Source of the DNA: an uncultured Thermodesulfobacteriota bacterium
GTDB lineage: Bacteria > Desulfobacterota > WTBG01
Assembly: GCA_964632275.1 (NCBI GenBank)
Contig: CAZWCD010000002.1
Location: 1-42,208, forward strand
Direction of reading: 5' to 3'
DNA length: 42,208 nucleotides
Part shown: one piece after another, positions 6,575 through 13,703 of the stretch
Position numbering within the stretch: position 1 is the stretch's first letter
How the letters are laid out: each line of letters starts with the position of its first letter
Position numbers and translations under genes: made by a program
The notes under the pieces: generated by a model
What the model was told of the DNA's origin: nothing
The model's database searches: none
Seen by the model: the letters and a program-made list of their open reading frames with translations, nothing else

Positions 6575-8005
6575 TTAGGAACCTGAGGTGTATACAGGCG
6601 AGGCGCGGAATACCGTGCGGAAGGGATCGATGCGGTATCCCCGTTCTTGCAATTCAGAGAACAGGGAGGCATCATACTTCAGGAGCCATAGTTCCTTTCC
6701 ACTCAGCGTTGCCCGGTTGATTGCCTCGAGGCTCTGTGCGCGCCTGGCATCGCCCCATGTCCCCGATAGCCATTCCTTATTAATCCACTTACCGGTATAG
6801 GAAGCTCCGCAAAGATAATGTTCAAAAAGAATGCCCTCCGTCCACGGACCAACGACAATAAAATCGGGCTGTGCGGCATGCTTAAGAGCGTAAACCGTCT
6901 TGCGGTATTCTTCAAATCGTGCACTGATGTTCAAGATCTGATTGCGGGTGATGAATCCTGAGCAGGTTACAGAAATAATAAAAAAAAGATACACGGCTGC
7001 GGTAAAAAGGCGGCTTTTATGGCGCACAACATTGATAACCGATTGAAAGCCCAATCCGCCCACAATGCACATGAGTGCATAAAAGGGAAGTTGCACCGGT
7101 ACATCGCCAAAACGCTCTCCGGCGACAAAGGTAAAAAGCCAGATGCAGAAAATGGTCGGCCCCCAGTCACGATACCTTCTGCATCTGATCAATTCGATTG
7201 TTCCGGCGATCAGGAAGGGTACATACCAGAGCATGGTTGAAAAAAATTCGCGGTATTCCTTCAAGAGCGCAGCGCTGATTGCAAGTGACGCACGTGATGC
7301 TTTCAGGAGGCCTCGTCCTCCCACAAAGTAGTCAGGAGCAACGGCGGAGACTGCGACAATAATAATAATGAGAGCACTAAAGGCAAATCTGGTGAGCAGC
7401 GGTCTCTCTTTCCGGAACGGAACGAGCATGGCGAGGCCGAAGACGGCACTCGGGGTGATGAGAAAGGAAAGGGCGTAGGATATGCCCGCAATGGCCGGCT
7501 TGTTGTAGAGAAGCAGGACAATCGAGAGGAGAAAGAAAAACAACTGTGCACCGTAAACTTCAGCAAAAACAGCGTTAGCGGTGAAGAGCGGATTGCTGAA
7601 CAAGATAAAGCATGCTGCAAACGATGCCAACCTGTTTTCGGTGAGAGAGGATGTGATCAGAAAAAGTACCGATATGCTGAGGGCAGCGCAGAAGCAGCTC
7701 ATGAGATTCAAGGCATAATCCGGAGGCAGTGGCAGGAGATGGATGAAGGGTAATCCAAGAAGGTAATATCCAAGGTGCACGGTTCGGTGCGTTACATCGA
7801 GGTCATGTATCTGCTGGAGGTAAAGGGCGGCATCGCCGCCCGTCAGGACCCGGGGAGCAAGCAGAGCGAAATAAAAAAATAAACAAAGAAAGAAGAGTGC
7901 AGAACAAATGCGCGAATTTTGAAGAAGCGCCTCAATGGAAAGACGATTCAAGAAGCTGCACGCAGGCTTTGTATCAGAACGTAATGTTGCGTTGTATAAT
8001 TTCAT
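6575..8005 (-). CDS. Polytopic membrane protein with a C-terminal soluble domain; GT-C-like (DUF2723/PMT-like?), function unknown
   Basis: 476 aa with about 11 hydrophobic helices. The first loop is APRVLTGGDAALYLQQIHDLD, and a C-terminal domain of about 110 aa is hydrophilic. Its ATG overlaps the upstream gene stop (ATGA at 8002-8005). Confidence 0.55.
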   Translation of the reverse strand: MKLYNATLRSDTKPACSFLNRLSIEALLQNSRICSALFFLCLFFYFALLAPRVLTGGDAALYLQQIHDLDVTHRTVHLGYYLLGLPFIHLLPLPPDYALNLMSCFCAALSISVLFLITSSLTENRLASFAACFILFSNPLFTANAVFAEVYGAQLFFFLLSIVLLLYNKPAIAGISYALSFLITPSAVFGLAMLVPFRKERPLLTRFAFSALIIIIVAVSAVAPDYFVGGRGLLKASRASLAISAALLKEYREFFSTMLWYVPFLIAGTIELIRCRRYRDWGPTIFCIWLFTFVAGERFGDVPVQLPFYALMCIVGGLGFQSVINVVRHKSRLFTAAVYLFFIISVTCSGFITRNQILNISARFEEYRKTVYALKHAAQPDFIVVGPWTEGILFEHYLCGASYTGKWINKEWLSGTWGDARRAQSLEAINRATLSGKELWLLKYDASLFSELQERGYRIDPFRTVFRASPVYTSGS

Positions 8006-11650: not shown

Positions 11651-13703
11651 TCCGTCAGCTGTAAATGCAAGTCTTGGTACAATGAAAAAAACAATCATTA
11701 ACGGCCATTTGTTTGCTTGTGCCCTTATTGTGCTCATGAGCGTCTGCTTATACCGTACTGCTCTCCAGGGTGATTTCATCTGGGATGACAGGGATCTCAT
11801 TGTTGCTCAGGCCGGGTATTTGAATGACTGGAAAAATCTCTACCGTGTGTTTGTCAATCCGATGTTTGGAGAAACCCCTTACTACAGGCCTGTTCTAACG
11901 GTATCGTTTATAGTTGATTATCATTTCTGGGGAACAAACCCATTCGGGTATCATTATACCAATCTTATTTTGCATATTGTCAACGGCATCCTGGTCTATC
12001 TATTTGCTTTTCTCCTTTTTAAAAAACGCTCGATTGCGCTTTTTACAAGCTTGTTTTTTGTGACCCACCCAGTCCAGAGCGAAGCTGTGGCCTGGATCAG
12101 CGGAAGGAATGACCTGCTACTCACCTTATTTGCCTTGATTGGCTTCATCGCGCATCTTCGTTTCACGCGCTGTCATGATGGGAGCAAACAGCTTGTTTAT
12201 GCAATCTGCCTGCTTGCATACGGTGGTGCACTGTTAACCAAGGAAAGCGCCATCATCCTACCACTGCTGTGCGTGCTCATGGATTATTTTTATCCGGCTG
12301 GCAAAAAAAGAATTACCAGGTATTATGCCGGTATTGTATTTGTCTCCGTCATATATTATTTAGCAAAAGCAGCCGTTGTGGGAGACATGGGTATTGAACT
12401 GCGGGGAAGAGCATTATTACCTGTGATTTCCGGAGTGATCGTAACCTATGCGTACTATTTTAGGATGCTCATATTTCCGTTGTTTCAGTCTGCGATACCA
12501 GAAATAACCGGGTCTAGCTTTGCTAATCAGTATGTTATAGTAAGTTCTTTATTTCTTGTTGCGTGTTTGTTGTTAATTGCCCTTATTTGTTTGAAAAGGC
12601 TTAAAGAAATTTCATTCATCATCCTCTGGGTGCTGGTTTCGCTTATTCCGGTGTGCGGCATTATTCCACTCACCATTCCGGCAATGGAGCACAGACTCTA
12701 CCTGGGAGCAGTGGGTTTCAGCTTACTGCTGCCATGTACTGTTTGCCGGCTATTCTCGCTGCAAGCAAAGACGAAAAAAATGAATAATATGAGTGTGATA
12801 GTAGTACTTGTTGTGCCGGCAGTATTGATATTCTATTCTGCTAAAACGGTAGTAAGAAATGCCGTATGGGGAAATGAGCCTTCTTTTTGGTTTAAGACAG
12901 TTCAAGATTCGCCAGGTTCTTCTATTGCGAGAGGCAGCCTGGGTTTTGTGCTTGCCCGTGAGGGTAAACATAACCTGGCAATCCCTGAATTTAAAAAGGC
13001 TTTAGAATTGACTGATCAGGAATGCATGTACCCTGCCGGGCACAGTAAAGTTCAGAAGAGGAAGCTTTTAAATAATCTAGGGAAAAGCTACTATCAGTTG
13101 CTGCGAAACCTTGGGCAGCTTGAAGAATATTCAGTACCGGCAGCTGCGTCTGATAAAACAGAGTCAGCGCAGGAGAGGAATGATGCGGAAAGATTTTATA
13201 AATTGAGCCTTGCATATTACCAAAGAGCGCTCAGGATTACTCCTGCAAGTGCCGAGGTGCATAACAATCTGGGAGATCTTTTTTATGTAATAAAAAACTA
13301 CATAGGTGCCGAAGAGGAATACAGAAAGGCTTTGAAGTGCAATCCCGACAAGCCACAATATTATAATAATCTGGGCCTGGTCTACTATGGTTTGAATAAC
13401 TATGACGGTGCTAAAGAGAAGTTTAGCATGGCAATATCGTTAAAGCCGGACTTTTTGGAAGCACGCAATAATTTAGCACTCGTATACATTCATCAGGGTA
13501 TGTACACCAGGGCGTTGGATGAATTAAAAATAGTGTTATCATCAGGTCAGCATAATTCCGATGTCTGCTACAATTTGTCCCTGGTGTATCTTCGCGGGTT
13601 TAGCGACAGCGAACGGGCCATGTACTATTTGCAGGAAAGCTTCCGGCTGAGTACTCGTAATTCTAACGACGAGCAGTTTAATAATGCTTTTAACGACTTA
13701 TAA
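11640..13703 (+). CDS. TMTC-like GT-C membrane protein (DUF1736-type core) with C-terminal TPR repeats; putative protein O-mannosyltransferase-like
   Basis: 687 aa. Motifs: ALQGDFIWDDRDLIVAQ ... YYRPVLTVSFIVDYHFWGTNPFGYHYTNLILHI ... VTHPVQSEAVAWISGRNDLLLTLF. At least 4 C-terminal TPRs (AEVHNNLGDLFYVIKNYIGAEEEYRKALKCNPDKPQYYNNLGLVYYGLNNYDGAKEKF...). An alternative start is ATG 11682 (MKKTIING). It overlaps the upstream gene by 11 nt. Confidence 0.65.
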   Translation: MTPSPSAVNASLGTMKKTIINGHLFACALIVLMSVCLYRTALQGDFIWDDRDLIVAQAGYLNDWKNLYRVFVNPMFGETPYYRPVLTVSFIVDYHFWGTNPFGYHYTNLILHIVNGILVYLFAFLLFKKRSIALFTSLFFVTHPVQSEAVAWISGRNDLLLTLFALIGFIAHLRFTRCHDGSKQLVYAICLLAYGGALLTKESAIILPLLCVLMDYFYPAGKKRITRYYAGIVFVSVIYYLAKAAVVGDMGIELRGRALLPVISGVIVTYAYYFRMLIFPLFQSAIPEITGSSFANQYVIVSSLFLVACLLLIALICLKRLKEISFIILWVLVSLIPVCGIIPLTIPAMEHRLYLGAVGFSLLLPCTVCRLFSLQAKTKKMNNMSVIVVLVVPAVLIFYSAKTVVRNAVWGNEPSFWFKTVQDSPGSSIARGSLGFVLAREGKHNLAIPEFKKALELTDQECMYPAGHSKVQKRKLLNNLGKSYYQLLRNLGQLEEYSVPAAASDKTESAQERNDAERFYKLSLAYYQRALRITPASAEVHNNLGDLFYVIKNYIGAEEEYRKALKCNPDKPQYYNNLGLVYYGLNNYDGAKEKFSMAISLKPDFLEARNNLALVYIHQGMYTRALDELKIVLSSGQHNSDVCYNLSLVYLRGFSDSERAMYYLQESFRLSTRNSNDEQFNNAFNDL

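Follow-up and report, generated by a model that had tools for sequence, protein, structure and literature searches.

Locus and genes

The stretch of DNA analyzed here (the window: 42,208 nucleotides, contig CAZWCD010000002.1 of GenBank assembly GCA_964632275.1, from an uncultured Thermodesulfobacteriota bacterium) carries four consecutive genes for polytopic membrane proteins, termed A, B, C and D, which sit between the genes of a PilR-type and a PilS-type regulator (3395-6496) and that of a major type IV pilin (14017-14478). According to the list of open reading frames (ORFs), they form two divergent pairs, C-A on the reverse strand and D-B on the forward strand, and B ends 313 nt upstream of the pilin gene. 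The order across the region is pilR-pilS-C-A on one side of the divergence and D-B-pilin-Wzy_C-GT4-radical SAM on the other (GT, glycosyltransferase). Proteins A and B, in which a membrane core is followed by a tail of tetratricopeptide repeats (TPRs), are the main subject here, together with the pilin beside B and the partner proteins C and D. An earlier note on this DNA had likened A and B to the eukaryotic TMTC1-4 proteins and taken each to be translationally coupled to its polytopic neighbor. The features concerned are as follows.

3395-4783, forward strand: pilR-like gene for a sigma-54 response regulator, at the flank of the island (Sigma54_activat by Pfam in orthologs; NCBIfam)
4787-6496, forward strand: pilS-like gene for a histidine kinase, at the flank of the island (6TM_PilS by Pfam in orthologs; NCBIfam)
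6575..8005, reverse strand: C, polytopic protein of 476 aa, a distant TMEM260/GT87-like GT-C candidate
8002..9678, reverse strand: A, 558 aa, a paralog that shares the core of B and carries a short TPR tail at about residues 440-550; motifs FVAGD, HPIHTH and KENYLY
9550..9555, reverse strand: codons G42-D43 of A, with Gly in place of the first, normally invariant Asp
9679..9994, no strand: divergent intergenic region between A and D, 316 bp
9995..11650, forward strand: D, polytopic protein of 551 aa encoded just before B; TTG 9932 is a possible earlier start of the same ORF
11640..13703, forward strand: B, 687 aa, with a predicted GT-C core of 11 transmembrane (TM) helices at residues ~1-410 and a TPR domain at ~413-687
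ATG 11682, forward strand: alternative start of B, equivalent to Met15
11784..11789, forward strand: codons D49-D50 of B, the first-loop acidic (DD/DDx) motif of GT-C enzymes
14017..14478, forward strand: major type IV (prepilin-type) pilin, 153 aa (N_methyl 1.9e-11, PilA_Myxo 2.7e-14), the proposed acceptor

Paralogy, conserved motifs and TPR tails

A and B are clearly paralogs by sequence, with a similarity far beyond chance: BLASTP aligns them over ~417 residues of the membrane core at 27% identity and 46% positives (E=6e-35). The motif series that the earlier note had quoted as common to both (F[IV]xxD[RD], YYRP, NPxG[HY]H..N..H, HP[IV][HQ][ST].. and GRxD) is present in this pairwise alignment and is nearly invariant in an alignment of 25 homologous cores having 25-66% identity to B. 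Invariant or nearly invariant columns of the latter alignment are, in B numbering, F46, D49, D50, Y82, R83, P84, H105, N108, H112, H143, P144, R156, D158, K201, E202, Y273, P280 and Y354. The motifs of B can be written as DD49-50, YYRP81-84, R156xD158, K201E202, Y273x6P280 and E350xR352xY354. Among 115 family members taken from the search with B, D49 is Asp in 114 and D50 in 111. The first-loop acidic motif reads FIWDD in B and FVAGD in A.

The claim that both proteins end in TPRs was borne out. Pfam detects TPR_2 in B at 7e-21, with at least three canonical repeats located around residues 538-640, while a single repeat in A lies above the Pfam cut-off (TPR_2, 28.6 bits vs 27); A also matches the superhelical TPR region of OGT (E=1.8e-7). 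The family of GT-C+TPR proteins is very large (phmmer with A: 69,557 representatives at E<=1e-3 and 37,985 at E<=1e-10). Tandem arrays of two to four such paralogs are frequent, for example in the genome loci that we label L016, L019, L021, L023 and L043.

The TPR regions also match the models of PilW, Tgl and GltE, all below cut-off, and some homologs are labeled PilF or TadD by the Joint Genome Institute (JGI). These matches, along with the missing canonical first Asp of A, would suit proteins that serve as non-enzymatic scaffolds in pilus assembly (PilF/PilW/Tgl-like) on a degenerate membrane domain. We consider such a role highly improbable, since more than 100 homologs retain the catalytic and donor-binding residues of B almost without change, PilF, PilW and Tgl are lipoproteins without a polytopic core, and the variant in A is conserved and co-varying (see below) instead of decayed.

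Predicted fold and membrane topology

The AlphaFold2 model of full-length B has a mean predicted local distance difference test score (pLDDT) of 88.8 and a predicted template modeling score (pTM) of 0.89. Since Foldseek searches with the full-length model were dominated by TPR proteins (OGT, SPY, CTPR), a model of the core only (residues 1-430; pLDDT 85.4, pTM 0.89) was made and compared with the PDB. Its top 24 matches were all GT-C proteins (probability 1.0, query-normalized TM-score [TMq] 0.38-0.57), among them STT3 of the oligosaccharyltransferases OST-A/B, AglB, ArnT, PglB, Pmt1/Pmt2, Pmt4 and DPY19; unrelated transporters appeared only beyond E ~0.04 and with low probability. The core of B as modeled therefore has a GT-C fold, which agrees with the outcome that the earlier note had anticipated for a structural comparison, and homology to B (E 6e-35) suggests the same fold for A. 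Regarding the first Asp expected of the GT-C superfamily, B carries it (D49-D50) and A does not, keeping only the second Asp. The sole NCBIfam match to the core of B is a weak one to ArnT (E 3.5e-4, residues 95-237).

The B model contains 11 membrane-spanning helices and additional periplasmic juxtamembrane helices. The short loops rich in Lys and Arg (KKR 128-130, RCHDGSK, PAGKKRITRYY, LKRLKE and QAKTKKMNN) and the N-terminus with its KK pair are all located on the same side, so that the modeled helices and the positive-inside rule together predict an N-in, C-out topology. With the N-terminus inside and 11 TM helices, the loops carrying DD, KE and ExRxY and the whole TPR domain of B would lie in the periplasm, as the earlier note had expected for the TPR tail and the first-loop motif.

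Pilin context in related loci

An ortholog of B (35-72% identity) lies directly upstream of a pilin gene in 10 out of 10 related loci from metagenome-assembled genomes (MAGs) and metagenomes (L001-L004, L006, L008, L010, L011, L171 and a contig of JGI 3300042731). This B-pilin adjacency is the conserved core of the arrangement. It is kept in L171, which lacks C, A and D and in which a B ortholog of 722 aa still precedes the pilin, as well as in L006, which lacks the Wzy_C gene and still has B followed by the pilin. In L171 (L171:9001-14339), two tandem pilin genes are located between the B ortholog and a second, divergent GT-C+TPR protein of the DD type (607 aa).

The pilin gene of the window has a sigma-54-type promoter of its own, and 8/8 loci conserve the sequence TGGCAy-N5-TTGCT at a distance of 122-148 nt before the pilin ATG, which fits control by PilR. 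Downstream of the pilin, most related loci share a block of GT4, radical SAM/SPASM, methyltransferase and YfhO genes, placed after the pilin and Wzy_C genes. The corresponding features of the window are listed here.

13890..13904, forward strand: sigma-54-type promoter of the pilin gene (TGGCAT-N5-TTGC)
14791..16206, forward strand: Wzy_C (O-antigen-ligase-like) membrane protein, directly downstream of the pilin (Pfam Wzy_C 3.1e-24)
16203-17366, forward strand: GT4, part of the conserved downstream block (16203..22590)
17338-18588, forward strand: radical SAM/SPASM protein, part of the same block
18786-20024, forward strand: methyltransferase with a Trm112-like N-terminus, part of the same block
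20125-22590, forward strand: GT-C protein of the YfhO family, part of the same block

The pilin is thus flanked by two different candidate glycosylation enzymes, B upstream and the Wzy_C protein downstream. Beyond the conserved block, positions 22574-40366 of the window hold a large polysaccharide cluster dependent on an ABC transporter (Wzm/Wzt with Wzt_C), which includes eight glycosyltransferases of the GT4/group-1 type, two GT2, one GT9, an AsnB-like amidotransferase, a sulfotransferase and methyltransferases. Across roughly 9-26 kb of the window, G+C content is 41-47%, compared with 53-58% in the neighboring pyr/pilRS genes and in the glycosyltransferase genes farther along, and this dip suggests an island of different origin or under different constraint.

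A candidate pilin glycosylation island

The location of the genes between pilRS and the pilin gene, a context absent from the earlier note, points to pilin glycosylation of the kind carried out by Pseudomonas TfpW instead of an analogy with enzymes acting on cadherins. We think it moderately probable that the region is a pilin-linked glycosylation island, in which the adjacent pilin is glycosylated by B, a GT-C+TPR protein glycosyltransferase in the style of TfpW and TMTC; A, the divergent paralog, would have a remodeled active site, and C and D would be accessory membrane proteins that vary between lineages. A and B would then be inner-membrane GT-C proteins whose 11-helix core presents catalytic and donor-binding residues in periplasmic loops, and the periplasmic TPR domain fused to this core would hold the protein acceptor. 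By analogy with ArnT, PMT, TMTC and TfpW, the donor may be a sugar linked to polyprenyl phosphate and flipped across to the periplasmic side, and a secreted or periplasmic protein would, as with known GT-C enzymes, receive it on its hydroxyl groups. Gene order suggests the type IV pilin encoded directly downstream as the acceptor for B, which would make B a functional analog of TfpW.

Several observations weigh against this interpretation. Pfam scans of A, B and the isolated cores returned TPR models only, with no match to PF08409 (DUF1736), PMT_2 (PF13231) or PMT (PF02366) even at E<=10, and a hidden Markov model (HMM) of the 25 cores had 0 matches among PDB sequences. The earlier note had proposed an HMM search for DUF1736 and PMT-type families, and this gave no direct result for A or B; what it did give was a transitive link to the family, as 7 of the 25 homologous cores match PMT_2 (best 1e-9), one matches PMT (9.6e-7) and one matches TMTC_DUF1736 (2.5e-4), and a relative of A of the AGD type (P0323) has a precomputed match to PMT. 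Neither a polyprenyl-phosphate sugar synthase (ArnC/GtrB/DPM1-type) nor a gene of the D-arabinofuranose (D-Araf) pathway was recognized within the window, and the GT2 proteins of the window, when checked for such a synthase, were only soluble ones of the exopolysaccharide (EPS) type. The donor and the acceptor of A and B are both inferred, and the likeness of B to TfpW is drawn from the published description of architecture and motifs. Farther out in the family, at 22-30% identity to B, pilin genes are near in 1 out of 37 genome loci, which is about chance level. This single pilin-linked locus, L019 (L019:5118-13450), has four tandem paralogs abutting three pilin-like genes. Hence, the link to pilins belongs to the B orthogroup and not to the family as a whole. 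Moreover, all of the pilin-linked loci belong to a single related clade and share synteny, and the adjacency may partly reflect common descent. The pilin and B are not co-transcribed, since the former has a conserved sigma-54 promoter to itself, and the polysaccharide cluster downstream offers alternative acceptors.

Some of these points would also fit an acceptor other than the pilin. A and B could glycosylate other proteins of the periplasm, the outer membrane or the pilus machinery (general O-glycosylation, PilQ, minor pilins), with the pilin adjacency being inherited synteny within an island of surface-structure genes. The sheer size of the family (37,985 representatives at E<=1e-10), the 36 of 37 wider-family loci without a pilin nearby, the common occurrence of tandem paralog arrays, as expected for diverse acceptors, and transcription of the pilin from its own promoter are all in keeping with this possibility. 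Nonetheless, B and pilin stay adjacent where C, A and D have been lost and where the identity of B drops to 35%, and the second, divergent family member in L171 also lies beside pilins. Overall, we regard an acceptor protein other than the pilin as unlikely, although deserving of consideration.

The gene content downstream raises the further possibility that A and B act on a glycan or lipid, as do enzymes of the ArnT/Emb type, and modify or polymerize the polysaccharide of the Wzm/Wzt cluster, the TPR domain docking to the export or assembly machinery. ArnT is among the best structural matches of the B core and its sole NCBIfam match; Wzy_C, many GT4, GT2 and GT9 proteins, the Wzm/Wzt exporter, a sulfotransferase and methyltransferases are encoded directly downstream; and TfpW itself has been proposed to polymerize arabinan. 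We nevertheless judge a glycan or lipid acceptor to be improbable. TPR tails on GT-C cores have so far been tied to protein acceptors (TMTC, TMEM260, TfpW), the pilin gene separates B from the polysaccharide genes in every locus, and B tracks the pilin instead of the glycan cluster, as illustrated by L006, where B and pilin remain together without Wzy_C.

If glycosylation of the adjacent pilin is indeed the function of B, one orthogroup of a family of ~38,000 representatives (E<=1e-10) gains a concrete and testable acceptor in a ‘deltaproteobacterial’ lineage.

A variant active site in paralog A

The first Asp of the first loop is described as present in all GT-C enzymes compared and as indispensable for catalysis (PMC7801869). 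In A, this first Asp of the DD motif is replaced by Gly (G42), which is kept in five A orthologs (52-84% identity). The same five orthologs also keep a His at the position of E148 (HPIHTH) and a Tyr or Phe at that of R352 (KENYLY). Among the 142 nearest full-length representatives (phmmer with A), Gly occupies the first-Asp position in 11, 10 of which also have His at the E148 position; the D/E pair is found in 105. The R352 position is less diagnostic, with W, F or Y occurring in many members of the DD type. The difference between DD and GD, in which the earlier note had seen functional divergence, is accordingly real and conserved.

This conserved covariation of Gly and His argues that the pattern in A is not one of decay. 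Judged by its sequence, A is a coherent, co-varying active-site variant under selection and not the outcome of random degeneration. Probably its chemistry or acceptor differs, or else it is a non-catalytic or auxiliary partner, possibly acting with the translationally coupled, TMEM260-like C. A more specific proposal, which is speculative and which we hold to be a long shot, is that the A lineage (FVAGD / HPIHxH / KE(N/H)xxY) represents either a catalytic GT-C variant without the first-loop Asp, in which the co-evolved His takes over metal or acceptor binding, or a non-catalytic TPR adaptor for C, and that with B and the downstream Wzy_C ligase it forms a multi-enzyme system placing two or more glycans on one type IV pilin. 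The analysis exposes a conserved subfamily without the Asp considered indispensable for GT-C catalysis. If the A subfamily is active, the accepted GT-C mechanism would be refined; if it is inactive, it would represent a bacterial GT-C pseudoenzyme.

Partner proteins C and D

C belongs to a small family (71 members). Its match to the TMEM260-like Pfam family (PF11028; 5.4e-4, 20.2 bits) is under the gathering score of 24.2, GT87 is matched at 0.038, and its top PDB match is the TMEM260 structure 9rql (E 0.035). Profile comparison of C with the A/B family by hhalign gave a probability of 76% and an E value of 2.2e-5, with the invariant GD58AA loop of C aligned with the DD loop. In the closest relative of the window, L001 (GCA_016294905.1), the C ortholog is split into two ORFs (L001:154-1448) by a frameshift or an assembly error; similar fragmentation affects A, B and D in the long-read MAG loci L008, L010 and L011.

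The D family is large (at least 1,247 members), widespread, strongly conserved and without annotation, with 50-60% identity among matches labeled Elusimicrobiota, Aminicenantes, Chloroflexi and others, and its invariant motifs include ADxGDG, WNxWW, HFAHAEGH, GGHWRF and HESSVH. D had no relative in Pfam or the PDB and no profile link to the A/B family or to C, and the comparison of C with D likewise found no relation between the two. The YfhO protein of the window gave a weak, colinear hhalign match to D (E 0.0028, probability 11%, 267 columns); D has no match to Pfam PF09586. In other loci, D occurs inside a GT-C gene cluster (L005) or alone (L007), and it is missing next to B in L002, L003, L010 and the JGI 3300042731 contig. 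In the proposed island, D would be an accessory membrane protein, present in some lineages only.

The earlier note had described the coupling of each paralog to its partner through gene overlaps, a claim that holds in part. The ATGA at 8002-8005, in which the start of C overlaps the stop of A, is real and is kept in L002. On the other side of the divergence, the stop codon of D (TAG, 11648-11650) does overlap the ATG of B at 11640. B orthologs lacking D start at the equivalent of Met15 (ATG 11682), and residues 1-15 of B are disordered in the AlphaFold2 model; the 11-nt overlap of D and B thus depends on the start codon chosen, and the true arrangement may be a 31-nt gap. As a conserved property of both paralogs, translational coupling to a polytopic partner does not stand, D being missing in four loci and C, A and D in L171.

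Intergenic region and nested palindrome

The divergent region between A and D measures 316 bp (9679-9994), as the earlier note had it, if D starts at ATG 9995, a start that is supported by a 551-aa ortholog (P0121). The nested palindrome that the note had reported there was also found, and is generic in nature. The structured elements of the region are the following.

6538..6557, reverse strand: terminator-like hairpin, at the end of the A-C transcription unit
9744..9817, no strand: nested palindrome, REP/MITE-like repeat (repetitive extragenic palindrome/miniature inverted-repeat transposable element) inserted in the lineage of the window only

The palindrome (dG -30.3 kcal/mol, z -4.8) is an insertion of ~85 nt confined to the window and L001, its closest relative; the intergenic regions of L002, L006 and L011 lack it. 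Its repeat sequence can be written as GTCATTCCCGCGAAAGCGGGAATCCA...TGGATyCC.GATCAAGTC.GGGAaTGAC. The 23-nt core has at least 120 exact matches in unrelated contigs of soil, marine and sludge metagenomes; among the matches listed, it occurs more than once on many contigs, and the second arm is identical in several of them. By sequence comparison, the palindrome is a widespread REP/MITE-like repeat. A role as an operator for the divergent promoters was considered and rejected, given that the element is a lineage-specific insertion (~85 nt) of a widespread repeat. Scans of the region for sigma-70 promoters and terminators performed no better than on shuffled sequence.

Comparison with known systems

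Full-text literature searches turned up TfpW as the only characterized bacterial enzyme that combines a GT-C core with TPRs. TfpW (AAM52060.1) of Pseudomonas aeruginosa/paraeruginosa group IV strains attaches D-arabinofuranose to Ser/Thr of the pilin and has been proposed to polymerize arabinan (bioRxiv 10.1101/2020.04.19.049825). This GT-C protein of 646 aa is predicted to cross the membrane 11 times and ends in a TPR domain located in the periplasm. Its periplasmic loop 1 carries a DDx motif that is essential, and its loop 4 a conserved Yx6PFx7P. The gene adjoins pilA; PhoA/LacZ fusions place loop 1 and the TPR domain in the periplasm (bioRxiv 10.1101/2020.04.19.049825). B resembles TfpW in its GT-C core of ~11 TM helices, its first-loop DD, its predicted periplasmic C-terminal TPR domain, its length (687 vs 646 aa) and the position of its gene beside that of a major type IV pilin. 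Loop 4 of B has Y273-x6-P280-L-x5-P287, of which Y273-x6-P280 resembles the Yx6PF of TfpW; Y273 and P280 are nearly invariant or invariant, and the spacing of the second Pro differs from that in TfpW. Other aspects differ. B is encoded upstream of the pilin, whereas tfpW is downstream (the paralog in L171 does sit downstream); the host belongs to an uncultured ‘deltaproteobacterial’ lineage and not to the Gamma- or Betaproteobacteria; D-Araf genes (DprE1/E2, GtrA-like) were not seen within the window; and A lacks the first D of DDx.

The eukaryotic TMTC1-4 proteins (GT105), which are O-mannosyltransferases of cadherins, carry the ligand-binding motifs DD and SHKSYRP (EL1), RxD (EL2), KE(T/Q)xxT (EL3), DW (EL4, in the DUF1736 segment) and ERxxY (EL5) (PMC7801869). 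B is predicted to share with them an 11-TM GT-C core followed by lumenal or periplasmic TPRs and, compared by motif only, has counterparts of M1-M4 and M7 (DD, YYRP, RND, KESAII and EHRLY). The TMTC-like identity assigned in the earlier note is consequently retained as regards the predicted GT-C fold, the TPR tail and these five motif counterparts in B, and falls short in that A and B have no TMTC_DUF1736 match and loop 4 of B has Yx6P instead of DW. In addition, no cadherin-type acceptor is evident at the locus. From the sequence comparison, ‘TMTC-like’ should be taken to describe an architecture and not a demonstrated membership of the TMTC family. This architecture is already known in prokaryotes, as full-length prokaryotic homologs with GT and TPR parts are on record, including one from a deltaproteobacterium (PMC7801869).

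Similar partial likenesses are found with other GT-C families. The PMT/PMT_2 and ArnT enzymes (GT39/GT83) share the fold and, within the family, the same first-loop acidic motif, whereas A and B are below Pfam detection and have a TPR tail in place of the MIR domain of PMT, and ArnT acts on lipid A and not on protein. C is weakly similar at its N-terminus to the TMEM260/DUF2723 protein O-mannosyltransferases (GT117), with a first loop containing a conserved Asp, and differs from them in scoring below the Pfam gathering threshold, in lacking a TPR tail and in its small family. The Wzy_C protein occupies the same position, directly after the pilin, as the pilin O-oligosaccharyltransferase TfpO/PilO of Pseudomonas. 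Taken together, the locus leaves the general picture unchanged and adds one more case to a type of system that is already known.

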